64,000 nt of DNA, from positions 63,114 through 127,113 of the forward strand of contig JAKBMK010000025.1 of NCBI GenBank assembly GCA_021831595.1, in the 5' to 3' direction. The notes below the pieces were generated by a model, which was given only the letters and a program-made list of their open reading frames with translations, searched no databases and was not told where the DNA came from. Positions 3,464-50,597 of this stretch are shown in pieces. The translations under genes and the position numbers were made by a program. Positions within the stretch are counted from its first letter, which is position 1, and each line of letters opens with the position of its first letter. Source of the stretch: a bacterium. Lineage in GTDB: Bacteria; Patescibacteriota; Minisyncoccia; Phycocordibacterales; UBA9973.

Positions 3464-5566
3464 ATGGCTAAAAAAGAAGAAGTAAAAAAGGTTAAAAAGG
3501 ATAGTTATGGAGCCGAGCAAATTTCCGTTTTAGAAGGGCTTGAGCCTGTCAGACGTCGTCCCGGCATGTATATCGGATCAACTGGCATAGATGGACTTCA
3601 TCATTTGATTTGGGAAATTTTTGATAACTCTCGCGATGAAGCGATGGGAGGATTCTGTGATCATATCGAAGTTACACTCTTGCCAGACAATTCTGTTCGA
3701 GTGGTAGACAATGGACGTGGTATTCCTGTTGATATACACCCAAAGACAAAAGTTTCTGCGCTTGAGACAGTTATGACGACTCTACACGCTGGAGGAAAAT
3801 TCGGAGGGGATGATAGTGGTTATAAAGTTTCAGGAGGACTTCATGGAGTTGGAGCTTCAGTCGTGAACGCCCTTTCTATCTATACCAAAGCCGAGGTTCA
3901 TAAAGATGGAGGTAAATATGTTCAAGAATATTCTCAGGGTAAGAGAAAAGCCGCTGTTAAGAAAGTAAGTAGTACGAAGAATCATGGAACGATTATATCT
4001 TTTCAACCAGATGAAGAAATTTTCAAGCAGGTTAGATTTGATCCTGATACAGTTATTGCTCATCTACGTCAACAGGCTTATTTAGTGAAAGGTCTTCGTA
4101 TTGATATTATCGACGCCCGCGAATGGGATCCGATAACAGGAGGCAAGGGCAAAAGTAGTGACTATGAAAATGCTTTTTGGTTCTCTGAACTCGAGTTGGA
4201 AGTTCCTTCAACAACATTTTATTTTGAAGGAGGACTGGTATCTCTCGTAAAGTTTTATAATAAATCTGAGAAGCCAATACACTCTACTGTATTTTATGTA
4301 GAGAAAGAGATAGACCAAGTTGGAGTTGAAGTGGCCTTGCAATATGTCGATGGTATTAATGGTGATATCATTCCTTTTGCAAACAATATTCACAATCCAG
4401 AAGGAGGTACTCATGTCACAGGATTCAAAACAGCGCTCACCAGAATACTCAATACCTATGGTAAGAAGAACAATCTGATCAAAGAAGCCGATGGAGGATT
4501 CACAGGAGATGATGTCCTAGAAGGACTCACGGCTGTGGTGTCTGTGAAGCTTCGTGAAATTCAATTCGAAGGTCAGACGAAAGCTAAGCTTGGATCAACG
4601 GAAGCTCAAGGTGCAGTTGCAACTGTCTTCGGAGATGCATTTAATGCTTTCTTGGAAGAGAATCCAGATGAAGCTAAAGCTATAATAAGTAAATCTCTTC
4701 TTGCTCTGCGAGCTCGTAAAGCTGCTAAAGCTGCGAAGGATTCCATATTGCGTAAAGGTGCTCTTGAAGGTATGACTCTTCCTGGAAAGCTTGCAGACTG
4801 CCAAGTCAAAGATGCTGAAAGTGGAGAACTCTTCATTGTGGAGGGAGATTCTGCTGGAGGTACTGCTAAAATGGGACGCGACAGAAAGACTCAAGCGATC
4901 TTGCCTCTTCGAGGTAAAATACTCAATGTCGAGAGAGCTCGTCTTGATAGAATGCTAGGATCTGAACAGATCAAGAACTTGGTGATAGCCATGGGTACAT
5001 CGATCGGAGATACTTTTGATATAAATAAAATGCGCTATCACAAAATAATTCTTGCGACAGATGCCGATGTGGACGGAGCGCATATCCGTACTCTTATACT
5101 CACTCTTATGTATCGTTATTTCAGACCAGTATTGGATGCAGGCTATGTCTATATCGCTCAGCCACCACTATTTAAAATAAAGAAAGGTAAAGAAATTTTG
5201 TACGCATATACAGACGAAGAGAGAGATAAAATTTTAGGTAAAGATGCACCTTCTCTCGAAGAATTGCTAGTAGAGTCTGCTAATGAAGAAGGAGGGCAAG
5301 AAGAACCAGAGGAAGAGGAAGAAGAAAATCCAAAAGCAAAGAAAACTCAAAAGATTCACGTCCAGAGATACAAGGGTCTCGGAGAAATGAATGCCGAAGA
5401 ACTCTGGGAGACAACCATGGATCCAGGCAGAAGAATTTTGAAACAAGTTTCTGTTGTGGATGCTGAAGATGCCAATAAAGTATTCGATATGCTTATGGGC
5501 TCGGAAGTTCCTCCTCGTAAATCATTCATCCAATCTCACGCCAAAATGGCAAATCTAGATATATAA
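3464..5566 (+). CDS. gyrB: DNA gyrase subunit B
   Basis: GHKL ATPase motifs (LHHLIWEIFDNSRDEA, GLHGVGASVVNALS), Toprim (EGDSAGG), C-terminal QRYKGLGEM, acidic insert EEEEEE. Confidence 0.95.
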   Translation: MAKKEEVKKVKKDSYGAEQISVLEGLEPVRRRPGMYIGSTGIDGLHHLIWEIFDNSRDEAMGGFCDHIEVTLLPDNSVRVVDNGRGIPVDIHPKTKVSALETVMTTLHAGGKFGGDDSGYKVSGGLHGVGASVVNALSIYTKAEVHKDGGKYVQEYSQGKRKAAVKKVSSTKNHGTIISFQPDEEIFKQVRFDPDTVIAHLRQQAYLVKGLRIDIIDAREWDPITGGKGKSSDYENAFWFSELELEVPSTTFYFEGGLVSLVKFYNKSEKPIHSTVFYVEKEIDQVGVEVALQYVDGINGDIIPFANNIHNPEGGTHVTGFKTALTRILNTYGKKNNLIKEADGGFTGDDVLEGLTAVVSVKLREIQFEGQTKAKLGSTEAQGAVATVFGDAFNAFLEENPDEAKAIISKSLLALRARKAAKAAKDSILRKGALEGMTLPGKLADCQVKDAESGELFIVEGDSAGGTAKMGRDRKTQAILPLRGKILNVERARLDRMLGSEQIKNLVIAMGTSIGDTFDINKMRYHKIILATDADVDGAHIRTLILTLMYRYFRPVLDAGYVYIAQPPLFKIKKGKEILYAYTDEERDKILGKDAPSLEELLVESANEEGGQEEPEEEEEENPKAKKTQKIHVQRYKGLGEMNAEELWETTMDPGRRILKQVSVVDAEDANKVFDMLMGSEVPPRKSFIQSHAKMANLDI

Positions 5567-10696: not shown

Positions 10697-12976
10697 ATGA
10701 CACTTAAATCTATAGAACTTATTGGTTTTAAATCATTTGGGAAGAAGAGCCCTCTAACTTTTTCAACACCTATAACTTGTATTGTGGGTCCAAACGGATC
10801 TGGAAAATCAAACATTGTAGAAGCTATTCGCTTCGTACTTGGAGAACAGTCTATGAAATCTCTTCGCGGAAAAGGTGGAGTGGATTTAATATTCAAAGGT
10901 TCAAAAAGTTTAGCGACTTCTAATAGAGCCGGAGTAATTATAACTTTTGATAATAGTAATAAAATATTTTCTTTTACCAATAGTGGTGTAGGAGTATCTC
11001 TCGACTATGATGAAGTTTCTATTGGACGTGAAGTATTTTCTGATGGGGCAAATCGTTATAGTATCAATGGGACAGAAGTTAGATTGAAGGATGTTATAGA
11101 TCTGCTTGCTTCGGTTAACATTGGTAGCTCGGGCCATCACATAATTTCCCAAGGGGAAGCTGATCGAGTTCTTAATGCTTCGAATAAAGACCGTCGAGGT
11201 ATGATTGAAGATGCTTTAGGACTTAAGATATATCAATACAGAATAAAAGAGTCTGAGAGAAAATTAGAGAAAACAATATTGAACATGAAAGAAGTTCAGG
11301 CTCTTCGTCGTGAAATAGCTCCACATCTATCATTCCTTAAGAAACAGGTTGAGAAGGTAGAGAAAGCTCGAGCAATGCGAGAGGACTTGAGAGATTTGTA
11401 CAAAACATATTTTAGTGGAGAGGCTACTTATATAGAGAAAGAGACTAGCCGCATTGGTGAATTAAGAGGGGAACTAGATAAAAAAGCTTTGTATTTGGAT
11501 GATAAGATAAAAGAATCAGAAAGTTTGAAAAATATAGATTATACAGAAAGTGAAAACGTAAAACAGATTAGAGAAAAAGAGAGTGAGATACATGAACTTC
11601 GTAGCAAGAAGGATAGCCTCGCTCGTTCCCTAGGACGTATCGAAGGTATAATCGAAGGGATTGAGAGGCAATATGCAAAAATTCCAGAAGTTAAAGAAAA
11701 AATAATAAAAGAATCAGAATGGAAGTCTCTTGTAGAAGACTTGGAATCTAAAATTAATGAAGCTATTAATTTTGAAGACTTACAAAGTGTCAAAAATATT
11801 TTGATAAACATCAAGGAAAAGCTTGGATCTTTTCTTCATAGCGGAACGGAGAGTGAATTTGAAAAGCCAAAGCTAGAAGATAATACAGAATATCTAGAGA
11901 TGGGAAAGGAAAAAGATAATATAATTTTAGAAATAAATAAAGTAAAATCTCAAGAAGAAGAGGTTCAAAATGCAATAAATATTTTGAAAGAAAAAGAAAA
12001 GGAAGGGGAATCATTATTGCGTGATAATGAACGTATGCACTATGAACTCTTGAGGGAGAGGAATGATGTCACTTCCTCTATACATACTCTTACTTTCCAA
12101 GAAGAAAAGTTAATGGCAATTAAGACAGCTTTTGAAATGGAACTTGCAGAAGGAGCAGTTCTAATAGGTAGAGATGTTGTAGCTTTTGCTCAAATTAGAG
12201 TAGAGGAAGAAGTTATCAGAAGTACCCAAGAAGAAATTCGTAGAAAAATTGAGCGCATAAAGATTAAATTAGAAGATGCCGGAGCATCAAATTCTTCTGA
12301 GATAATGAAAGAATATGATGACACAATGGAACGCGATGTTTTCCTTGGAAGAGAACTGGAAGATCTAAATAAGAGTATTGATTCACTTCGAATCCTTATA
12401 CAAGAGTTGAAAGAAACTTTAGATAAAGAATTTAAGAGTGGAGTTGAAAAAATAAACAAACAATTCCAGGAATTTTTTGCTTTGATGTTTGGTGGAGGTG
12501 GTGCTTTCCTTACTATTACTATGGAACACAAGAAGCCAAAAAAGAATGACGAGAAGGTAGGAGAAGAAGATATGGATGAAGAAGATGAGGAAGACGAAGA
12601 TAATAGCGAGCTTGGGTTTGAACGCGGAATTGAAATCAACGTCAATCTTCCTCAGAAGAAGGTGAAAGATTTGCATATGCTATCCGGAGGGGAGAGGTCA
12701 CTCACTTCTATTGCTCTTCTCTTTGCTGTCTCACAAGTAAATCCTCCTCCATTCCTAGTTCTCGATGAGACAGATGCCGCACTCGACGAAGCGAACTCTC
12801 GTAAATACGGTAATATGCTCGAGAATCTATCAAAATATTCACAACTTATCGTTGTCACGCACAATCGCGAGACAATGTCTCGAGCCCAAGTGCTTTATGG
12901 AGTCACAATGAGTGCCGAAGGGGCTTCTAAGCTTCTCTCCATACGTCTCGAAGACGCTACTTCTTACGCCAAATAA
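10697..12976 (+). CDS. smc: SMC-family ATPase (reduced, 759 aa; heads plus coiled coil, no recognisable hinge)
   Basis: N-terminal FKSF..GPNGSGKSNIVEAIRFVLG Walker A. C-terminal LSGGERSLTSIALLFA signature, LVLDETDAALD Walker B, FGGGGA motif. Sits immediately after rnc as in the rnc-smc operon. Confidence 0.7.
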   Translation: MTLKSIELIGFKSFGKKSPLTFSTPITCIVGPNGSGKSNIVEAIRFVLGEQSMKSLRGKGGVDLIFKGSKSLATSNRAGVIITFDNSNKIFSFTNSGVGVSLDYDEVSIGREVFSDGANRYSINGTEVRLKDVIDLLASVNIGSSGHHIISQGEADRVLNASNKDRRGMIEDALGLKIYQYRIKESERKLEKTILNMKEVQALRREIAPHLSFLKKQVEKVEKARAMREDLRDLYKTYFSGEATYIEKETSRIGELRGELDKKALYLDDKIKESESLKNIDYTESENVKQIREKESEIHELRSKKDSLARSLGRIEGIIEGIERQYAKIPEVKEKIIKESEWKSLVEDLESKINEAINFEDLQSVKNILINIKEKLGSFLHSGTESEFEKPKLEDNTEYLEMGKEKDNIILEINKVKSQEEEVQNAINILKEKEKEGESLLRDNERMHYELLRERNDVTSSIHTLTFQEEKLMAIKTAFEMELAEGAVLIGRDVVAFAQIRVEEEVIRSTQEEIRRKIERIKIKLEDAGASNSSEIMKEYDDTMERDVFLGRELEDLNKSIDSLRILIQELKETLDKEFKSGVEKINKQFQEFFALMFGGGGAFLTITMEHKKPKKNDEKVGEEDMDEEDEEDEDNSELGFERGIEINVNLPQKKVKDLHMLSGGERSLTSIALLFAVSQVNPPPFLVLDETDAALDEANSRKYGNMLENLSKYSQLIVVTHNRETMSRAQVLYGVTMSAEGASKLLSIRLEDATSYAK

Positions 12977-19119: not shown

Positions 19120-19156
19120 CCGTGGTTTGGTCACCTCGGGATTTTTCTGTTTTTTA
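19120..19156 (+). terminator. possible attenuator hairpin (ccgtgg..cctcgg) plus T-run in the rpoB leader
   Basis: Imperfect 6-bp stem followed by gatttttctgtttttt, ~20 nt upstream of rpoB ATG. Confidence 0.3.
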
Positions 19157-19174
19157 GTGTTTTTATATTTTATT

Positions 19175-22100
19175 ATGAAAAAATCAGATACAGTTGTGAA
19201 GAAGTATTTCTCGCATTACAAGAAGCCGTTAGTAGAGTTTCCAAATCTAATCGAAGATCAATTGAATTCATTCAATTGGTTGGTAGAAAAAGGTATCAAA
19301 GAAGTTTTCAAAGAATTTTCTCCGATAAATGATTACTCAGAGAAAAAGTTTCAACTTGATTTTACTTCCTTCTCTCTTGGAGAACCAAAATTCGATGAAG
19401 AATATACCAAGCTCAACAAGCTTACTTACGAAGGACCACTAAAGGCCCGTGTTAAGCTCTTGAACAAGAGTATTGGAACTTCTAAAGAACAGGAAATATT
19501 TATGGCAGATGTACCGCTCATGACCAAGCACGGTACTTTTATCATAAATGGTGTTGAACGTGTTATCGTTGCTCAGCTTACTCGTTCATTCGGAGTATTT
19601 TTCACAGAGCAAGAAATGAAAGGCAAGCGTTATTTTGGAGCAAAGATAATTCCAGCTCGTGGTGTATGGATAGAAGTTGAGTCAGACACAGATGGTGCTG
19701 TATATGTACGTATCGACAAGAAACGCAAATTCTCTGTTGCTTCACTTCTACGCGTACTTGGACTTACTACAGATGAAGCCATGCTTAAAGCTTTTGGAGA
19801 CAATGAAGAAATATTGAAAGTTATCAAGACTTCTATAGAGAAAGATCCAGCTAAAAGTCTGCAGGATTCATACATAGAAATATACAAGCGTCTCCGTGAC
19901 GGCGATCTAGCTACTTCTGAAAATGCTAAGGAATTTATGAATATTTTGCTTTCAGAAGAGAGATATGACCTTTCTCCAGTTGGAAGATTCCGTTTCAATA
20001 AGCGTTTCGATAAGAATATGGATGAGAAAGAAATGGAACGTCGTACTATTTCAGTAGACGATGTTGTAACCATTGTAAAGAACATAATTGATCTAAATAA
20101 TGACCCTCATGCTAAAGGCGATGATATCGATCACTTGGGTCAACGCCGTGTTAGATATGTCGGAGAAATGTTCCAACAAAAAATCCGCACAGGTATGGCT
20201 CAGATCAAGAGAAATGTCCAAGACCGTATGTCGACAATAGATGTCGGTACGACAATGCCTATCCAGATAATAAACCAGCGACCACTTCAGGCTCGTATCA
20301 AGGAATTCTTCACTGCGAACCAGCTTTCTCAATTCATGAACCAAGAAAACGTAATGGCAGAAGTAGAGCACCTACGTATTCTCTCTGCTCTTGGTCCTGG
20401 AGGACTTACTCGTGAAAGAGCAGGTCTTGAAGTTCGTGACGTACACACTTCTCACTATGGAAGAGTTTGTCCTATACATACACCGGAAGGTCCAAACATT
20501 GGTCTTATTCTCCACTTATCAACTTATGCCAAAATAAACGAGTTTGGAATTATCGAGACTCCATATGTGAAAGTAAAGAACGGAAAGATTACAGGTGAAG
20601 TTGTATATATGAATGCTCTTGAAGAAGAGAGATACAATATTGCTCATGCTGGAACCGACTATGATGAGAATGGAAATATCAAAGAAGAAAAAGTAGAAGC
20701 TAGATTAAAGACAAAGCCTGGAATGGTTTCAAAAAATGAAGTTGACTTCATTGATGTAGCTACAAACCAAGCTTTCTCAGTGGCGACTTCTATGATTCCT
20801 TTCCTAGAACACGATGATGCTCACAGAACACTCATGGGAAGTAACATGCAGAAACAAGCACTTCCTTGTATTATTCCAGAAATACCACTTGTATCTACTG
20901 GTATGGAAGAACTTGCAAGTAAAGATTCTGGACGTTTAATTTTGTCAGAAGTATCAGGTGTCGTTTCCTATGTAGATGCAAAGAAAATATCAGTTAAAGA
21001 TGATAAAGGGAAAGAGCACCACTATCCACTCATTACTTTCTCTCGTACGAACAACTTCTCTATATTCCATCAACGCCCATCAGTTTCTCTTGGAGACAAA
21101 ATAAAGAAGGGTCAAGTATTGGCAGATACAAGTACAACAGACCATGGGCAAATATCACTAGGTCAGAATGCCTTGGTAGCATTTATGTCATGGGGTGGAG
21201 CAAACTACGAAGATGCGATTATTCTTTCTGAGAGATTGGTCAAAGATAGTAAATTTACAAGTATTTATGTTACTGAATTTATCTGCAATGTTCGTGATAC
21301 AAAGCTAGGTCCAGAGATAACAACTCGCGATATACCAAACGTTGGTGAGAATAAACTTAAAGATTTGGATGAGGATGGTATTATCGTTGTCGGAGCAGAA
21401 GTCACTGAAAATGATATATTGGTAGGTAAAATTACACCAAAAGGTGAGACAGAACTTACTCCAGAAGAAAGATTGCTTCGTTCTATCTTTACCGAAAAAG
21501 CTCGTGATGTGAAGGATACATCACTACGTCTTGAACATGGTAAGAAGGGTAGAGTTGTCGGTGTGAAGATATTCTCACGCGATCAAGGTCACAATCTAGA
21601 ATCAGGAATTATAAAGAAAATTATTGTTGAGATTGCACAGATTAGAAACATTTCAGTAGGAGACAAGCTTGCTGGACGTCACGGTAACAAAGGTGTTATC
21701 TCTGTTATCTTACCTGAAGAAGAAATGCCATTCATGGCCGATGGTACACCTGTAGATATTATTCTTACTCCACTTGGAGTTCCATCTCGTATGAACTTGG
21801 GACAGATTCTAGAAATGCATCTAGGTTATGCTGCTCACACACTTGGCTATCAAGCTATTGTACCTACCTTCTCTGGAGCAACAGTTCCAGAAATTAAAGC
21901 TGAACTTGTAAAAGCAGGAATGCCAGAATCAGGAAAGGTTACTCTATATGATGGACGAACAGGAGATGCTTTCGAGCAAGATATTGCTATTGGATACATG
22001 TATATGTTGAAACTTCACCACATGGTGGAAGACAAACTTCACATGCGTTCTATCGGTCCTTACTCACTTATTACTCAACAGCCACTCGGAGGTAAAGCTC

Positions 22101-22345
22101 AAGGTGGAGGTCAGAGATTCGGAGAAATGGAGGTCTGGGCTCTCGAAGGTCATGGTGCTGCTTACTCTCTACGTGAAATGCTTACAATCAAGTCTGATGA
22201 TATTATGGGTCGTTCACAGACATTCGACGCTATTATCAAGGGCAAACCAATCGGTGAACCAAATATTCCTGCTTCATTTAATGTTCTATTAAATTACTTG
22301 CGTGGATTATCTCTTGATGTGGATCTTAAAAAGTCGAAAGAATAA
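19175..22345 (+). CDS. rpoB: DNA-directed RNA polymerase subunit beta
   Basis: Conserved beta-subunit blocks throughout (GPGGLTRERAG, HYGRVCPIHTPEG, NMQKQALP, GRHGNKGV, EMEVWALE). Start at ATG 19175 (MKKSDTVV). Confidence 0.95.
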   Translation: MKKSDTVVKKYFSHYKKPLVEFPNLIEDQLNSFNWLVEKGIKEVFKEFSPINDYSEKKFQLDFTSFSLGEPKFDEEYTKLNKLTYEGPLKARVKLLNKSIGTSKEQEIFMADVPLMTKHGTFIINGVERVIVAQLTRSFGVFFTEQEMKGKRYFGAKIIPARGVWIEVESDTDGAVYVRIDKKRKFSVASLLRVLGLTTDEAMLKAFGDNEEILKVIKTSIEKDPAKSLQDSYIEIYKRLRDGDLATSENAKEFMNILLSEERYDLSPVGRFRFNKRFDKNMDEKEMERRTISVDDVVTIVKNIIDLNNDPHAKGDDIDHLGQRRVRYVGEMFQQKIRTGMAQIKRNVQDRMSTIDVGTTMPIQIINQRPLQARIKEFFTANQLSQFMNQENVMAEVEHLRILSALGPGGLTRERAGLEVRDVHTSHYGRVCPIHTPEGPNIGLILHLSTYAKINEFGIIETPYVKVKNGKITGEVVYMNALEEERYNIAHAGTDYDENGNIKEEKVEARLKTKPGMVSKNEVDFIDVATNQAFSVATSMIPFLEHDDAHRTLMGSNMQKQALPCIIPEIPLVSTGMEELASKDSGRLILSEVSGVVSYVDAKKISVKDDKGKEHHYPLITFSRTNNFSIFHQRPSVSLGDKIKKGQVLADTSTTDHGQISLGQNALVAFMSWGGANYEDAIILSERLVKDSKFTSIYVTEFICNVRDTKLGPEITTRDIPNVGENKLKDLDEDGIIVVGAEVTENDILVGKITPKGETELTPEERLLRSIFTEKARDVKDTSLRLEHGKKGRVVGVKIFSRDQGHNLESGIIKKIIVEIAQIRNISVGDKLAGRHGNKGVISVILPEEEMPFMADGTPVDIILTPLGVPSRMNLGQILEMHLGYAAHTLGYQAIVPTFSGATVPEIKAELVKAGMPESGKVTLYDGRTGDAFEQDIAIGYMYMLKLHHMVEDKLHMRSIGPYSLITQQPLGGKAQGGGQRFGEMEVWALEGHGAAYSLREMLTIKSDDIMGRSQTFDAIIKGKPIGEPNIPASFNVLLNYLRGLSLDVDLKKSKE

Positions 22346-22377: not shown

Positions 22378-25300
22378 ATGAAAATAATAGATACAACAGA
22401 TTTCGACTCAATAACACTCAAACTAGCTAGTCCTGAGAGAATTAAAGAGTGGTCATATGGAGAAGTTACAAAACCTGAAACAATAAACTATCGTACAGGT
22501 CGCTCTGAAAGAAGTGGTTTGTTCGACGAAAGAATATTCGGTCCAGAAAAGGATTATGAATGTTACTGTGGAAAATACAGAAGAATTCGTTATAAAGATA
22601 TTGTCTGTGAGAAATGTGGAGTGGAAGTTACTCGCTCTATAGTTCGTCGCGACAGAATGGGGCACATTGAGCTAGCTTCTCCTGTATCACACATCTGGTT
22701 CCTACGTGGAGTTCCGTCTCGCATGTCTACACTCCTAAATATTTCAGTTTCAGATTTAGAAAAAGTTATTTACTTTGCTGGTTATATAATCATAAAAGTA
22801 TCAGCTGAAGAAAAGGAAACTATTACCAAGAATCTAGAAAGTGAATTTAAATCAAAAATTAAAAGTGCTGCTAGTGAAGAAGAAAAAGAAAAGCTAAAAG
22901 AATTACTTCTAAATACAAAGAGAGAAATAGCTGAAATCGTTCCAGGAAAAGTTCTAAATGAAATAGCATATCATCACTTTGGACTTAAATATGGAAGTTG
23001 TTTTGAAGCTAGTATCGGAGCAGAGGCTATCTACACTATCTTTAAGAACTTAGATTTGGAAAAGATTAAAGATGAAACGGCCGCAATGCTTCCAAAGGCT
23101 TCCAGTATTGATAAAGAGAAATTGGAGAAGAGAATGTCTCTCATTCGTTCTATGATACACTCAGGAATTCGTCCGGAATGGATGTTCCTTACAGCTATCC
23201 CAGTTATTCCTCCAGCACTTCGTCCTATGGTGGCTCTTGATGGTGGACGTCATGCTACATCAGATCTAAACGACCTATATCGCCGTGTTATTAATCGTAA
23301 CAATCGTTTGAAGAAACTTAAAGAGATAGGAGCTCCAGATGTAATTCTCCGTAACGAAAAAAGAATTCTGCAAGAAGCTGTAGATGCTCTTATAGACAAC
23401 TCAATCGCAAAACAAAATGATTCTCAAGCTACTTCTGCTTCTCAGAAGCGTGCTCTTAAATCACTTTCAGATAACCTAAAATCAAAACAAGGTTTGTTCC
23501 GTCAAAACTTGCTTGGTAAGCGTGTGGACTATTCAGGACGTTCAGTTATCGTTGTAGGACCTGGTCTTAAACTTAATCAGTGTGGTTTACCAAAACACAT
23601 GGCTCTTGAGCTCTTCCGTCCTTTCGTGATTTCAAAAATTCTTGAGACAGAACTTGCTTTCAACATCCGTGGTGCTAATAGACTTATAGAAGAAGGGGTG
23701 CCTGAAGTTTGGGCAATTCTCGAAGAAGTAATTCGTGGTAAATACGTTCTCTTAAACCGTGCTCCTACTCTTCACAGATTAGGTATTCAAGCTTTCAATC
23801 CTATTCTTATTGAAGGACATGCTATTCAAGTACACCCACTTGTTTGTGCAGGATTCAACGCTGACTTCGACGGTGACCAGATGGCTGTATATGTACCACT
23901 AGGAGACATGGCGCAAACAGAAGCTCGCGAATACATGGCTTCAAACAAGAACTTGCTCAAGCCTCAAGACGGTTCTCCTATCGTAATGCCAAAGATGGAT
24001 ATTGTTCTCGGTTGTTACTGGATGACAAAGTCTGTTGATGGTGAAAGAGGTGAGGGTATGGCCTTCTCAAGTCCAAACCAAGCTATCACAGCTTTTGACT
24101 TGGGTATAATTACTTTCCGCGCAAAGATTAAAGTTCTAGGTACTGATAAGGCTCGCTATTCTCGTTTTGAAAATAAGCCATTTGAAACGACAGTTGGAAG
24201 ACTTTTCTTCAACACTATTTTCCCGGATGATTTCCCATACTTAAATGAAGAAATTACAATCAAGCGTATGTCTCTTCTTGTAGATGAGCTTATAGTTCAC
24301 TATGGTATTGATGCGACACCAAAATTCCTAGATAAAATTAAAGATTTCGGTTATCAGTATGCTACTTATTCTGGAGTAACTTGGGGTATAGACAACTTGA
24401 AAGTTCCAGAAGGTAAGAAAGAAATTGTTGCTAAATTTAGAAAAGAAGAAGAAGTTGTTCGTGGCCAATTCGCTGATGGACTTCTATCTGAAGATGAACA
24501 ATATCAAAAAGTTATAGAGATATGGGAACATGCCAAGAAAGAAATTGAAAAGGAAATTCCTGCAACTCTTGATCCAAAAGGTTCAACTTACGACCTTATA
24601 ACATCTGGTGCTCGTGGAAGTATGGGATCTCTAATACAGATGTGTGGAATGAAAGGACTCATTGTGAATACATCAGGAGCAACTCTAGATTTCCCAATTA
24701 TTCCTTCATATATCGAAGGCCTCTCACCACTCGAATACTTCATTACAACTCACGGTTCACGTAAAGGTGCTGCCGATACGGCCCTAAACACAGCGAAGGC
24801 AGGTTATCTTACACGTCGTCTAGTAGACGTCGCTCAAGACGTTGTTGTGACAGAAGAAGATTGTGGTACTAAGAATGGAAAGAAAATCGTTGCAGTCGAA
24901 AATGCTTTTGCCAAGTATATCCACGGCCGAGTATTGCTCGCAGATATAAAAGATACTGATGGAACAGTTGTTTACAAAAAAGGAACTCTTATAATGAAAG
25001 AAGACGCAAGACGTCTAGAGAAAATGGGTATCAAAGAAGCTTTAGTTCGTACACCTCTTTCTTGTGAGACAACACATGGAATCTGTCGAGTATGTTATGG
25101 ACTAGATTTGGGAAGAAACTGTATGGTAGAGCTAGGTCAAGCTGTCGGTATTATTGCAGCGCAAGCTATCGGTGAGCCAGGAACACAGCTTACACTTCGT
25201 ACTTTCCACGCCGGTGGAGTCGCTACTGTCGACATTACTACAGGTCTACCTCGTGTTGAAGAAATTTTTGAAAGAAGAATTCCAAAGAATCCTGCAATTA

Positions 25301-25998
25301 TTTCACAAACTGATGGAGAAGTTATTGATATAACCGACAATGGAAAAGAAAAGATAGTTAAAGTTCTCTCTGATTCAAAATCAGATGGAAAGAAGAACGA
25401 AATGGAATATATAGTTGCCAATCGTCGTCAGCCTGTGGTTAAAATAGGATCACATGTTAAGAAAGGAGAATTAATAACTGATGGTTCTGCTGATATTAAC
25501 GAAATTGTTAAATATGGAGGTAAAGATATGGCAGAGGAATACATTGTAGATGAGATCAATAAGGTTTATGACCTACAAAGTGCTTCAATCTCACGTAAAC
25601 ATATTGAAATAATTATTCGTCAAATGTTCTCAAGAAAGAGAATTAAAGATGCAGGTGATACTACATTCTCTCCAGGAGAAATAGTAGAAAATATTGAACT
25701 TATAGAAGAGAACAAGCGTCTCGAGGAAGAAGGAGGTGGAACAGGAGCTACAGCAGGAACTATCGTTCTTGGTATTACCGAAGTATCTCTCACAACAAAG
25801 AGTTGGTTATCAGCTGCTTCCTTCCAAAACACAAATCGTGTCTTGATAAATAATGCTATACGTGGAGGAGTAGATAATCTAAGAGGGCTAAAAGAAAATG
25901 TTATCATCGGAGGTTTGATACCAGCTGGAACAGGTTTCGGTGTAGAACGTCCAACAAAAGAAGAGGAAGAAGTGAACGAAGAAAGTAGTGTTGCTTAA
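22378..25998 (+). CDS. rpoC: DNA-directed RNA polymerase subunit beta'
   Basis: Zn-finger [31 protein letters not shown] catalytic motif, bridge helix, trigger loop. Confidence 0.95.
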
Positions 25999-26069: not shown

Positions 26070-27827
26070 ATGTCATCATCAGTTCCGAAAATCAAAGAAA
26101 GGCTTTCTATTGTTGATGTAATCTCTTCATATATCCAAGTAGAACAATCAGGAAAGAATTTCAAAGCTAGGTGTCCATTTCATAATGAGAAAACACCATC
26201 TTTTTTCGTATCACCTGATAGAGGTACATACTATTGTTTTGGTTGTGGAGAAAAAGGCGACATTTTTTCTTTTGTTGAAAAATTTGAAGGGACTGATTTT
26301 ATGGGAGCACTCAAGTTACTAGCTGAAAGAGCTGGAGTTAAACTTGAATATGAAAAGGGCGATAAGGATAAAGACAAGAAGGAACTATATTTTGAAATAT
26401 TAGAAGAAGCTACAAAATTTTTCGAAATTAATTTTGAGAAAGATCCAAAGCCGCGTGCATATTTACTCTCTAGGGGTTTAAATGATACTAGTATAAAGAA
26501 TTTTCGTATAGGATTTGTCAGAGATGAATGGAGATCAACCTCTGATTATTTACTAGGCAAGGGTTATAAAGTTGAAGACTTGGAAGCAGTTGGGCTTGTG
26601 AAGAGAACAGAAAAAGGAACATATGATAGATTCCGTTCTCGTATAATGTTTCCTATAAGTGACTCTAGTGGTAGAATTATCGCTTTCTCTGGAAGAATAT
26701 TTGGCAAAGAAGATGCAGCCGAAGCGAAATATCTTAATTCTCCAGATACAATACTTTTTAATAAATCAAATGTTTTATTTGGTATAGATAAAGCTAAAAC
26801 TTCAATAAGAACTAGAGGATACAGTATTGTAGTTGAAGGACAGATGGATTTGATACTTTCTCATCAGATTGGTTTTACTAATACTGTTGCAGTTTCGGGT
26901 ACAGCTTTTACTGACAATGTTGTTGATAGTGAATCAAAAATAAACAACCTAGGGCTTATCAGACGTCTATCTCCAAATATTATTTTTGCTTATGATGGAG
27001 ATTCGGCTGGAATTCGTGCTGCCAGCCGTTCATCTATGATCGCTCTCTCACTAGACATGCAAGTAAAGATTGCTGTCCTACCAGAAGGGAAAGATCCAGC
27101 TGATACTATAATGGAAAATAATGATGCCTGGAAAGAAATAATAAAGAATGCGAAAGATACAATAACTTTTCATGTAGATAGAATTTGTCAGAATACAAGT
27201 GATATAAGACAAAGAGGAAAACAAGTTCGAGATATTATTTTTCCATTCTTAATGGTTATAAAAAGTTCAATAGATAAATCTTCATATATTTCTCTTATTC
27301 ATTCCAAGACTGGAATTCCTTCTAGTGCCATAATTGAAGATTTTGAAGTGTATGAGAAAACTCATCAAGTGAGTATTGGTAATGAAATGAATGTAAACAA
27401 TTTAGATAAGAAAAAAGATATAATTTCTAGACGAGAACATTTAGAAAAGAGATTATTTGGAATTATATTCTGGCAAGAAAAAGGAAATTTAGGTATTGAT
27501 ATAAACAATGCATATAAAATATTAGAAGAAAAGATAGGGAAGGAGACATTCCTGAAAATATGTGAAGTTCATGAACCCTGGAAAGATGCTCTCGCACAAG
27601 AGGCCGAAATGTGGTATGGTAACAGAATAAAAGATATCCCTAGGGATTTAGAGGAAATGATGCTTTCTTTAGAGGAAGAAATTCTAAATGAACGTTTAAT
27701 TTTATTATTAGATAAAATAAATCAGAGGGGGGATATGGTTGAAAATTTTGACCCTGGTCCAATCCTTAAAGATTATCAGAAAACAGTCGAACGTATAGAA
27801 GAAATAAAAGGATATAGATTTAAATAA
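26070..27827 (+). CDS. dnaG: DNA primase
   Basis: Zinc ribbon [30 protein letters not shown]. Toprim (VVEGQMD...YDGDSAG). Confidence 0.9.
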
Positions 27828-27831
27828 TTTT

Positions 27832-29169
27832 ATGATAAAAAAACTTAAACAAAAAACAAAAAAGATTGTATTGAAAAAGAAAGCTGTTGTGAAAAAAGCA
27901 GTTAAAAAATCTGTAGCTAAAAAGCCAGTTAAGAAAGCTCTCAAGATGAAAAAAATTGCTAAAAAAACTACCAAGAAGGTGATAAAAAAAGTGGCAAAAA
28001 AGATAACTAAAAACAATAAGAGTAAGGCTAAAAAGGTAGTTTCCAAACCAAAAGTAAGACGAATGTCTGCTTCTAAGAAAGAGCAACTAGAAAAGAAACA
28101 ATTAGATCAAGAAGCAAAGTCTCTACAAATGATAGAGAAGGGTAAGAAGAGAGGCTTTGTGACGTATGATGAAATAATAAAAGAATTTCCTGATATAGAA
28201 ACAGATATACTTTTCCTCGACGAATTATATGAGCGTTTTGCTGTCGCTGGAATCGATGTTCTAGAAGGTGGTAATTTGCTCGATGTGACTGGAGATGTAG
28301 AGAAATTAGCTCTCAAATATAGTAAAGATGCCAAGACCTATGATTCTATTCAAATGTATTTGAAGGAGATAGGTCAGTATCCTCTAATTGCTGCAAATGA
28401 AGAGAGGGATTTGGCAAAGAGAATTGAGAAGGGGGATGTCGAAGCCAAGAATCTTCTTGCTCGTGCAAACTTGCGTTTGGTTGTCTCTATTGCTAAAAAA
28501 TATGTAGGGAGAAGTTCTGATTTAACACTACTTGATCTGATACAAGAAGGTAATTTAGGTTTGTTTAAGGCTGTTGAAAAATTTGACTGGACAAAAGGAT
28601 ATAAGTTTTCAACTTATGCTACCTGGTGGATTCGCCAATCAATCACTCGTGCTCTAGCCGACCAGTCTCGAACAATTCGTATCCCTGTTCACATGGTAGA
28701 AACTATTTCTAAATATAAACAAGTAGTACGTCGTCTTTCTCAAGATTTGGGACGTGAACCGTTAGTAGAAGAGATTGCAATGGAAATGAATTTGGAAGTA
28801 GAGAAAATCCATGTTATCGAGCAGATTAATCAGGAAACCGTCTCTCTAGAGCAACCAATAGGAGATGATGACGATAAGTCAACAAGAGGAGAATTCATTC
28901 CGGATGACAAGATTCTTCGTCCAGATCAAGACTCTTCTCGTAGAATTCTGTCTGATCAAATTAAAGAAGTACTCGATACTCTATCTCCAAAGGAAAGAAA
29001 AATATTGGAACTTCGTTATGGTCTTACAGATGGAGTGCAACACACTCTTGAAGAAGTAGGACAAGATTTTGGGGTCACTCGTGAGCGTATTCGTCAGATT
29101 GAAGCCAAGGTCCATGAGAAGCTTCGTAATAATGAAAAGATAGCGAGATTAAAGAATTATTTTGATTAA
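27832..29169 (+). CDS. rpoD: RNA polymerase sigma-70 factor with ~95-aa lysine-rich histone-H1-like N-terminal tract
   Basis: Regions 1.2-4.2 conserved ([54 protein letters not shown]). N-terminus [23 protein letters not shown]... Classic dnaG-rpoD order. Confidence 0.9.
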
Positions 29170-29216
29170 ACTAAAATAATAAAACACCCACATTGTGGGT
29201 GTTTTATTATTTTAGT
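29170..29216. terminator. bidirectional terminator between rpoD and convergent dsbA-like gene
   Basis: aaaacacccacattgtgggtgtttt stem with flanking A/T runs. Confidence 0.6.
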
Positions 29217-29218
29217 TT

Positions 29219-29941
29219 TTATAGATTGCTTGCTGGAGGTGTTGGTTTTGGATCCATAAGTCCAAATACTAGTTCTATGTATTTCCAGAATGCATCATTT
29301 CCTTTAAGTTTTGCAACACATTCAGATGCGACTAGCTTGTCCATTGAACCAGCATGTATAGGCCAGTGGCGGTACATCCAAGCAACTTGTCCATTTGATT
29401 CATCTACAACTTGCTTCATAGTTGTCTGGAAAGCTTTACAGTAAGGACATTCTAAATCTGAATATTCTATGACTACAACTGGAGCATTAGCATCTCCGTA
29501 TACATGATCTCCTTCTTCACTTAATACAACTTCACCTTTATAAGGAGCTGTAACCTTACCAGAGGCAACTTCAGAAATTGTTTTCTTTACCTGATCGATA
29601 GGGTAGGCTCCTTTAATCTCAGATTTAGAACCATTCTTTCCAATTACAATAGCGTAAGGGGTTCCTCTTTCTTCTGGCTTAAGAGCTTTCATTGCACTCT
29701 CTACACTTGCTGTTATTTTTGCTTGTAATGCTGTCTTGTCTGTACCAGAGACACAGGCATCAAAGTCTGCCTTTTTGACTCCTACTTGTTCAGACAAAGT
29801 TTTGTCTTTGTTACTTTCTGTTTTATTTTTACTTAAACCACTTCCTCCTCCGTTAGTTATTAATATACCTAACATGATAATAAATCCTGCAACTATTATA
29901 GCTGTAGGTGTGTTAATACTTAATTTTTTATCGTTTTCCAT
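29219..29941 (-). CDS. DsbA/BdbD-family thiol:disulfide oxidoreductase, N-terminally membrane-anchored
   Basis: CPYC active site (DLECPYCKAF), thioredoxin fold, N-terminal TM helix. Confidence 0.75.
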   Translation of the reverse strand: MENDKKLSINTPTAIIVAGFIIMLGILITNGGGSGLSKNKTESNKDKTLSEQVGVKKADFDACVSGTDKTALQAKITASVESAMKALKPEERGTPYAIVIGKNGSKSEIKGAYPIDQVKKTISEVASGKVTAPYKGEVVLSEEGDHVYGDANAPVVVIEYSDLECPYCKAFQTTMKQVVDESNGQVAWMYRHWPIHAGSMDKLVASECVAKLKGNDAFWKYIELVFGLMDPKPTPPASNL

Positions 29942-49151: not shown

Positions 49152-50597
49152 TTAAAACAAAGAATAAATGGCGGCGATAGCAGTAACTCCCATAAATATA
49201 GTTGTGACCCATCCGATAATATTGCTAATGCGTGAATTTTTGTAGTGGCCCATTATTTTATGGTTACTACTTATATGGACAATGAAGATAAGAATTACAG
49301 GAGCGACTATTCCATTTGCTATAGCAGAATATATTAGAGCCTTTATAGGATCAATACCTATAAGATTTATGAGTATCCCTATAATAACTGAAATTGCGAT
49401 GATACCATAGAAAGCTCTTGCTTCTTTGAGTTTGTGATAAAGACCTTCTTTCCATCCGAAACTTTCAGATATAGCATATGAAGCTGATCCAGCGAGGACG
49501 GGGATAGCAAGCATACCTGTGCCTATAATACCAATAGCAAAGAGTGTGGTGGCCCAACGGCCTGCAAATGGAGCAAGAGCGAGAGCCGCATCATTGGCCG
49601 TCCCTATATTTGTAATTCCATTTTTAAATAGAACACTTGAACAGACAGCTATAATGAAGAACATTACGAGATTTGAAAGAAACATTCCTGTCCAGACATC
49701 TTTTCTCATTTGTTTTATTTCCATAGGGTTTGTTCCTCTTCTTTGGTGTACAGTTTTTTTACCTTCTTTAATTTCTTCTTCTACTTCTTGTGATGTCTGC
49801 CAGAAGAATAAGTAAGGGGAGATAGTTGTTCCCAAGATTCCAGTAATTAGAAGTATTTGAGTTTTAGAAAAAGTTATATCGGGAATGATCAAACTTTTTG
49901 CTAAGCTAGACCAGTCCATGTTAATTATCAAACCAGTAATAATGTATGAGAAGAGAGATATGACTAACCACTTCAGATACTTACTATATTCTTGATATGG
50001 TACGAATATTTGCAAAACTAAACCTAAGATACCGAACCCTATAACAAGGGTAAAGAATGGAAAAGATGGGATTATAAGTTGTAATTCTTTTGCCATAGCA
50101 CCTAAGTCTGCTCCTATGTTTAAAGTATTGGCTGTGAATAAGAGTATTGTACAGATATATAATATTTTTCTTGAGTATAAATGTTTTATATTAGCGGCAA
50201 GTCCTTTACCTGTAACGAGGGCTATACGAGCACACATTTCCTGGATGACTGCCATAAGAGGGAAAGTCCAAGCCGCGAGCCATATCAGAGAATTACCATA
50301 CTGGGCTCCTGTTTGTGAGTATGTGGCTATGCCAGAAGGATCATCGTCTGCAGCCCCTGTCACAAGACCTGGCCCTAGCTTCTCTATATATTCTTCTCCT
50401 TCTCTTATATATTTTTCACCTTTTTCAAGTAGAGATTCTTTTTTCTCTATTAGTTTTTCTTCCTCTTCTAATAGTGTTTCTTTCTGATCTATTAGTTTTT
50501 CTTCTTGTTTAATTACCGATTCTTTTTCTTCGATTAATTTCTTCTCTTCTATTAAAGTTTCCTGTAGGTCTTTTGGACTTATTGGTTTTTTTGTCAT
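49152..50597 (-). CDS. mntH: Nramp-family divalent metal transporter (MntH-like) with repetitive acidic coiled N-terminal extension
   Basis: GPGLVTGAADDDPSGIATYSQTGAQYG (Nramp TM1 DPGN-type motif) and about 11 TM segments. N-terminal ~70 aa EEKKLIEEKESVIKQEEKLIDQKETLLEEEEKLIEKKESLLEKGEKYIREGEEYIEK. Confidence 0.75.
   Translation of the reverse strand: MTKKPISPKDLQETLIEEKKLIEEKESVIKQEEKLIDQKETLLEEEEKLIEKKESLLEKGEKYIREGEEYIEKLGPGLVTGAADDDPSGIATYSQTGAQYGNSLIWLAAWTFPLMAVIQEMCARIALVTGKGLAANIKHLYSRKILYICTILLFTANTLNIGADLGAMAKELQLIIPSFPFFTLVIGFGILGLVLQIFVPYQEYSKYLKWLVISLFSYIITGLIINMDWSSLAKSLIIPDITFSKTQILLITGILGTTISPYLFFWQTSQEVEEEIKEGKKTVHQRRGTNPMEIKQMRKDVWTGMFLSNLVMFFIIAVCSSVLFKNGITNIGTANDAALALAPFAGRWATTLFAIGIIGTGMLAIPVLAGSASYAISESFGWKEGLYHKLKEARAFYGIIAISVIIGILINLIGIDPIKALIYSAIANGIVAPVILIFIVHISSNHKIMGHYKNSRISNIIGWVTTIFMGVTAIAAIYSLF
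50395..50597 (-). repeat. imperfect ~36-bp tandem repeats encoding the EEKxLIExKES heptad/dodecad repeats of the Nramp N-terminus
   Basis: Plus-strand ctattagtttttcttc(c/t)t.. units seen 4-5 times. Confidence 0.5.

Follow-up and report, generated by a model that had tools for sequence, protein, structure and literature searches.

The window analysed here, a 64-kb stretch of DNA with a GC content of about 36%, carries on its plus strand a sigma-factor gene of the rpoD/sigA type (27832..29169), identified from the open reading frame list and from Pfam and NCBIfam matches, that encodes 445 amino acids followed by a stop codon. The protein is already public as an identical entry in NCBI and ENA (P0001), and its named homologs come from metagenome-assembled genomes of Candidatus Nomurabacteria, Paceibacteria and Parcubacteria. 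Upstream on the same strand, rpoB (19127-22345; Pfam Rpb2 domains) and rpoC (22378-25998; Pfam Rpb1 domains) lie directly 5' of a dnaG-rpoD arrangement, in which the primase gene dnaG (26070..27827; Pfam Zn_ribbon_DnaG, DNAG_N and Toprim) ends only 4 nt before the ATG of the sigma gene. The dnaG-rpoD order is also found in the relative L001, where the context of the sigma start is conserved. A promoter scan inside dnaG returned 10 promoter-like sites, no excess over the 12.3 expected from shuffled sequence. Directly 3' of the sigma stop codon, a terminator scan located a terminator-like hairpin on the plus strand (29170..29216) with a perfect 20-bp stem and a T run. This hairpin separates the sigma gene from a convergent DsbA/thioredoxin-like gene on the minus strand (29219-29941), and is probably a bidirectional terminator.

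The conserved regions of a housekeeping sigma factor are all recognisable in the protein. Region 1.2 (28342..28440, aa 171-203; PF00140, 53.1 bits), region 2 (28456..28674, aa 209-281; PF04542, 78.5 bits), region 3 (28699..28929, aa 290-366; PF04539, 70.3 bits) and region 4 (28969..29130, aa 380-433; PF04545, 60 bits), together with the region 1.1 considered below, all exceed their Pfam gathering cutoffs, which bears out the earlier description, in a first-pass annotation of this DNA, of an RpoD/SigA-type sigma with regions 1.2-4 intact. The top NCBIfam matches are RpoD models, of which PRK09210 spans aa 85-445. The RpoD equivalog cutoffs themselves are not reached (435 bits against 572 for PRK09210, and 336.7 against 354 for TIGR02393), as would be expected for a divergent CPR lineage. 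A check for other sigma factors had also been suggested; an HMM of regions 2-4, run over the 64-kb window, found no second one. A region 1.1 and the dnaG-rpoD neighbourhood are both in keeping with a primary sigma. On sequence grounds, the gene product is best read as a group 1-type, housekeeping sigma from the Candidatus Nomurabacteria (Patescibacteria/CPR).

Three other proteins of the window have segments of unusual composition. An Nramp-family transporter (49152-50597, minus strand) has a Glu/Lys-rich, repetitive N-terminal extension of about 90 residues (LIEEKKLIEEKESVIKQEEKLIDQKETLLEEEEKLIEKKE) before its Pfam Nramp match at aa 90-456. The window is at its most acidic in two places: a run, EEPEEEEEE, near the C-terminal part of GyrB (3464-5566, plus strand), and a patch, DEEDEEDED, in a 759-aa SMC/RecN-like ATPase (10697-12976, plus strand).

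Composition and disorder of the N-terminal tail

The first 84 residues of the sigma protein (27832..28083, plus strand) form a lysine-rich tail of KKxx repeats, delimited by composition and by the disorder predicted with AF2. It contains 37 K, 2 R, no D and a single E (K 44%, K+R 46%), giving a net charge of +38, and is the most basic stretch of the 64-kb window: the best 60-aa segment of the sigma has 29 K+R, compared with 18 in the next-best open reading frame, and the background Lys content is 9.3%. The lysine-rich N-terminus had been described before, with its sequence quoted exactly, and that observation stands. The length given then, about 95 residues, does not, and the K-rich part proper covers about 84; residues 85-99 are a helix of mixed charge and can already be aligned with the N-terminal end of firmicute SigA.

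Within the tail, the lysines are paired (KK) and recur every four residues, seen as a lag-4 autocorrelation of 0.23 in the window protein and of 0.31 as the mean of 120 homologs. Runs of K are separated mostly by 1-3 residues, among which V, I and A are prominent. The pooled composition of the tails (%) is K 45, V 17, I 7.5, A 6.7, S 5, T 5 and P 4. This goes well beyond what the A-rich DNA of the tract would supply. When that DNA is shuffled, 16.6 +/- 2.7 Lys are expected where 37 are present, and 7.6 D+E where there is one (P = 0.003); across the pooled tails, D+E amount to 0.6%, compared with about 9% predicted from the nucleotide composition of the tract. In the AF2 model, built on a 59-sequence alignment, aa 1-77 have pLDDT values below 50, about 29 over most of their length, and no secondary structure.

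Two features of the underlying DNA can be mentioned here. The Phe-rich open reading frames on the opposite strand at 27708-28046 (112 aa) and 27820-28086 (88 aa) are not genes but artefacts, the mirror image of the A-rich DNA that encodes the lysine tract. Long poly(A) runs are known to cause slippage of the ribosome or polymerase, and A-runs in 27832-28083 never exceed 7 nt despite the 37 Lys codons (AAA:AAG = 25:12). The spacing of the KKxx units may hold poly(A) short of the lengths at which slippage occurs.

The tail had been likened to histone H1, a comparison that is apt for its lysine content and fails for the repeat itself, which is a K/V/I-based KKxx. The C-terminal domain of histone H1 and Chlamydia Hc2 are likewise about 40% lysine, disordered and repetitive, and the repeat number of Hc2 varies between strains, according to an excerpt of the Hc2 study (PMC2848022). 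In contrast to these proteins, the window tail has no S/TPKK motif, A+P make up only about 11% of the pooled residues, and residues 1-99 match no Pfam model (Linker_histone and HC2 included) apart from a noise hit with an E-value of 2.6, no NCBIfam model, and no PDB sequence by phmmer. Given the missing model match, the zero count of S/TPKK and the low Ala/Pro content, we reject membership of the H1 family, and the description "H1-like" fits only in the sense of lysine content, disorder and repetitiveness.

Probable translation of the tail

A start codon downstream of the lysine tract, the objection foreseen in the first-pass annotation itself, would have removed the tail from the protein altogether, and we considered this in a comparison of 77 loci, comprising 75 species representatives from a genome collection, L001 and the window itself. 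In 76 of the 77, the frame 5' of region 1.1 stays open and an ATG lies close to the stop before it; L078, the only one to deviate, is truncated by the end of its contig. The resulting N-terminal extension has a median length of 83 aa (range 50-153) and a median K fraction of 0.39 (interquartile range 0.37-0.42). The codon equivalent to Met100 is ATG in 17 loci and TTG in 8, and in the other 52 it is a non-start codon (CTT, ATA, ATT, CTG and others), ATA being the codon in L001; Met39 and Met78 of the window sigma are not conserved among relatives. Alignment with sigma70 homologs, which the first-pass annotation had proposed as a check, gave a similar result from the protein side, as a comparable tail stands at the start of all of the best 120 database homologs (423-456 aa), whose N-termini measure 81-114 aa up to a conserved KGKKRGF motif and have about 40% K+R. 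The alignable cores of the tail-bearing relatives are 70-100% identical, and no complete locus that we examined lacks the tail.

The tail changes length while remaining in frame. P0002 and P0006 differ by one substitution and a 12-aa in-frame indel in the tail, and P0007 and P0013 by a 20-aa in-frame indel and no substitution. These differences could reflect true variation in the number of repeats, for which Chlamydia Hc2 offers a parallel, or the collapse of repeats in assemblies of short reads. Taken over the family, the tail gains and loses whole KKxx units without a change of frame, and it is under selection for an open frame, a high Lys content and almost no Asp or Glu.

The alternative, that the tract is an untranslated, A-rich dnaG-rpoD spacer and that the real start is one of the internal methionines (Met100, Met39 or Met78), draws on the sequence around the ATG at 27832, which has no Shine-Dalgarno motif nearby, the sole AGGA lying at -23. 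SD-like motifs are found in only 3 of the 44 long open reading frames of the window, so that, in a genome that hardly uses them, the missing motif at 27832 is uninformative. This alternative can also appeal to gene annotation. NCBI gives a Lloydbacteria homolog the shorter N-terminus, 360 rather than 454 aa, and the authors of a study of ribosomal proteins in CPR caution that an N-terminal extension may stem from the way in which the start codon was called (PMC9297842). Against it stand the non-start codons at the Met100 position in 52 of the 77 loci and the lack of conservation of Met39 and Met78, the open frame in every complete locus, the fact that the indels are all in frame, and the enrichment of K and depletion of D/E beyond the expectation from nucleotide composition. 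Across the tail there are no in-frame stops where shuffles predict 7.3 (P values of 0.0006 and 0.0012, about 0.001), whereas the other two frames of the same DNA contain 11 and 10. We therefore regard an untranslated spacer as hardly credible; on the comparative evidence from the 77 loci, L001 among them, we reject a downstream start codon. From the pattern of codons and indels, the lysine tract is very probably translated, and the architecture described here, with a translated tail, is almost certainly correct.

Two observations on gene starts go beyond this gene. In about a dozen open reading frames of the window a TATAAT-like box ends 3-14 nt before the ATG, examples being those starting at 29941 (minus strand), 45567, 50597 (minus strand), 53660, 57210, 58553 (minus strand) and 61005; the scarcity of SD motifs and these boxes near the ATG suggest that the genome uses leaderless or very short-leader mRNAs. 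The Lloydbacteria RpoD cluster P0122/P0271 (90% identity) is given as 360 aa in NCBI and as 452-454 aa by other gene callers, which indicates that the start of tail-bearing sigma genes is inconsistently annotated.

An acidic region 1.1 behind the tail

In textbook accounts, region 1.1 is acidic, imitates DNA and prevents free sigma from binding to DNA. The first-pass annotation placed the lysine tract in its stead, a view that the sequence following the tail contradicts. Pfam Sigma70_r1_1 (PF03979) matches aa 98-147 with 41.7 bits against a cutoff of 22.5 (E-value 1.1e-10), and AF2 folds aa 80-144 with block-mean pLDDT values of 67-82 and helices at 80-107, 112-118 and 126-138, so that region 1.1 as a whole can be placed at 28069..28272 on the plus strand. 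The closest solved relatives, the SigA proteins of B. subtilis and S. aureus (PDB 7ckq_F and 8x6f_E), align end to end, at full length, with aa 89-445 of the window sigma (E-values 1e-104 to 1e-105); they differ from it in having no N-terminal tail and in a more acidic region 1.1 and linker. Region 1.1 of the window protein has a net charge of -6 to -7. With the linker included the figure is -7, and the corresponding segment has -12 in S. aureus and -18 in B. subtilis. Since region 1.1 is present and net acidic, the tail is an addition and not a replacement: the acidic module is kept, somewhat weakened, with a +38 tail ahead of it.

A basic segment next to an acidic one invites comparison with M. 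tuberculosis SigA (PDB 5uh5_F), whose N-terminus, aa 1-103, is also basic and of low complexity (15 K, 8 R, net +19), and is followed by an acidic segment and then by region 1.2. The mycobacterial tract differs from the window tail in having 22% K+R and being rich in A, P, T and S, and its acidic segment (aa 104-206, net -44) has no Pfam r1.1 match. The tracts of this protein and of the Streptomyces sigma discussed below were checked on the sequences deposited in the PDB.

The same arrangement is the basis of a different account of the tail, in which it would not bind nucleic acid but pair electrostatically with the acidic region 1.1, the linker or acidic surfaces of RNA polymerase and so modulate autoinhibition, core binding or sigma release. 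The tethering of a +38 segment beside a net-acidic region 1.1, and the joining of basic and acidic segments in M. tuberculosis SigA, are what one would look for in such a case. The charges in the window protein are badly mismatched, however, at +38 against -7, and tail charge and region 1.1 acidity are uncorrelated among 41 representatives (rho 0.17, p 0.28), a weak test in that the anchors could be placed in only 41 of 150 sequences. This result gives no sign of tuned intramolecular pairing. Nor do the rpoB and rpoC genes of the window encode an unusual acidic patch, and no acidic partner patch was found in either of them or in the neighbouring genes. We consider electrostatic pairing unlikely as the explanation of the tail.

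Precedents and proposed role of the tail

Lysine-rich tracts on housekeeping sigma factors are not new in themselves. The principal sigma HrdB of S. coelicolor (PDB 8k60_F, 7vpz_F) has a lysine-repeat tract of about 90 residues (aa 73-161, net +20), and lysine repeats are over-represented in DNA-binding proteins, which include HrdB and B. pertussis RpoD (PMC5714199). In HrdB, however, the basic tract follows a region 1.1-like segment (a weak match at aa 18-78) and precedes an acidic stretch, where the window tract precedes region 1.1; it is A/T-rich (AKKxx) with 28% K+R and passes the Pfam HC2 model (40.8 bits against a cutoff of 40), where the window tract is V/I-rich, has 46% K+R and matches no model. 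Other lysine tracts are appended to proteins of different function. Streptomyces DdbA, a predicted RNA polymerase factor, carries a lysine-rich, H1-like N-terminal extension of about 93 aa that binds and condenses DNA in vitro (PMC3643593); its partner domain is DksA-like, not a sigma, and its repeats are S/T-A-A-K-K pentapeptides. Actinobacterial TopA is a DNA enzyme with a repetitive lysine tract, and in Streptomyces these repeats have been shown by experiment to give DNA binding and processivity (PMC5714199). They are C-terminal, of the form K1-2(A/T/N)3-5 with longer neutral spacers, and the window repeat is denser and more hydrophobic.

To the protein already known publicly as a sigma factor, and to the lysine-rich tracts already known on the housekeeping sigmas HrdB, Bordetella RpoD and M. 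tuberculosis SigA, the present case adds several differences. The tail stands before an intact, firmicute-type region 1.1; its K+R content is 46%, compared with 22-28% in the actinobacterial tracts; and it consists of a K/V/I KKxx repeat, in an AT-rich CPR host, carried by every complete locus of the clade that we examined. A literature search found no paper directly on a lysine-rich sigma N-terminus in CPR, or on region 1.1 together with "lysine-rich".

A wider survey took in 129 of the best 150 representatives at 50% identity, each with at least 150 aa before region 2. A 40-aa stretch with at least 40% K+R lies N-terminal of region 2 in 28 of them, many at the extreme N-terminus, and a basic tail stands ahead of a Pfam r1.1 match in P0195, P0127, P0126, P0122 (the Lloydbacteria protein) and P0128. 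One representative with both tail and r1.1 comes from a cluster whose members, where named, carry the labels Bacilli/Clostridia.

These data bear on the possibility that the tail, though translated, is nearly neutral: slippage of repeats in an AT-rich genome would have expanded a stretch of low complexity, and a permissive N-terminus would tolerate it. Its rapid turnover would fit such an origin, the tails being mostly unalignable between relatives and ranging from 50 to 153 aa, and so would the repeat-unit indels between near-identical alleles and the disorder modelled by AF2. A nearly neutral tail is harder to reconcile with its presence in every complete locus examined, in proteins with cores 70-100% identical, with the narrow interquartile range of the K fraction and the near-loss of D+E described above, or with the finding that no other protein of the 64-kb window has such a tract. 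Basic tails before region 1.1 are moreover seen again in other sigma clusters, which are about 50% identical, and this recurrence, together with the basic tracts of GC-rich Actinobacteria, implies that AT bias alone is an insufficient explanation. A nearly neutral expansion thus appears doubtful to us, at about the same low level as electrostatic pairing.

On balance, we lean slightly towards a reading of the tail as a lineage-typical, polycationic and disordered extension of about 84 residues, set before an intact acidic region 1.1 and acting as a DNA-binding arm. That DNA tethering is its main role, a proposal made by analogy, we would put at an even chance. The tail may act as a sequence-nonspecific arm for polyanions, chiefly DNA, in the manner of the lysine repeats of TopA, HupS, DdbA and HrdB. 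In the holoenzyme, region 1.1 occupies the downstream-DNA channel, from which open-complex formation expels it. With region 1.1 so placed, a flexible +38 tail at its N-terminus would project from the mouth of the channel. Such a tail could raise the nonspecific affinity for DNA, hold the sigma or the holoenzyme on the nucleoid and aid promoter search, and it could also stabilise promoter complexes or help to displace region 1.1. It would add to the autoinhibition exerted by region 1.1 and would not substitute for it. For mycobacterial sigma-B, an excerpt of a report likewise places region 1.1 in the channel, which it leaves at the open complex (PMC12000874).

Because the tract matches no family model, the analogy with DNA-binding repeats is one of composition, and even there the K/V/I residues and two-residue spacers of the tail differ from the K(A/T)3-5 repeats tested by experiment. 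The wide length range and fast turnover would also fit a loosely constrained appendage. Binding to RNA or to another polyanion such as polyphosphate, with contacts to nascent RNA or rRNA or the formation of condensates, is a further alternative to an arm for DNA. Lysine-rich disordered regions generally bind polyanions, the ribosomal protein uS19 of Parcubacteria also has an Ala/Lys-rich tail (PMC9297842), and an association with polyphosphate granules is reported for AlgP, which is an H1-like protein (PMC9239181). Sigma acts on DNA, however, and the lysine repeats studied experimentally bind DNA, so that we consider RNA or polyphosphate as the target very unlikely.

These results have consequences at several levels. 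For gene annotation, the comparison fixes the start codon of a gene family whose start is inconsistently annotated in at least one related cluster. Lysine repeats on DNA-binding proteins have been proposed as a trait of GC-rich genomes (PMC5714199), and this genome of about 36% GC is a counter-example. Several lineages have acquired a basic tail on their housekeeping sigma. In CPR, the attachment to region 1.1 of a segment of opposite and far larger charge raises the question of how autoinhibition, promoter search and open-complex formation proceed. CPR bacteria have tiny genomes and few regulators. A bolder version of the proposal is that the housekeeping sigma of Nomurabacteria and Paceibacteria doubles as a nucleoid-associated protein, its tail holding free sigma and holoenzyme on DNA and overriding the autoinhibition of free sigma by region 1.1, and that in such minimal cells it could replace missing nucleoid or initiation accessory factors. 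We hold this to be quite unlikely; were the sigma to double as a nucleoid protein in this way, it would mean that sigma cycling follows a different logic across a large radiation of uncultured bacteria.
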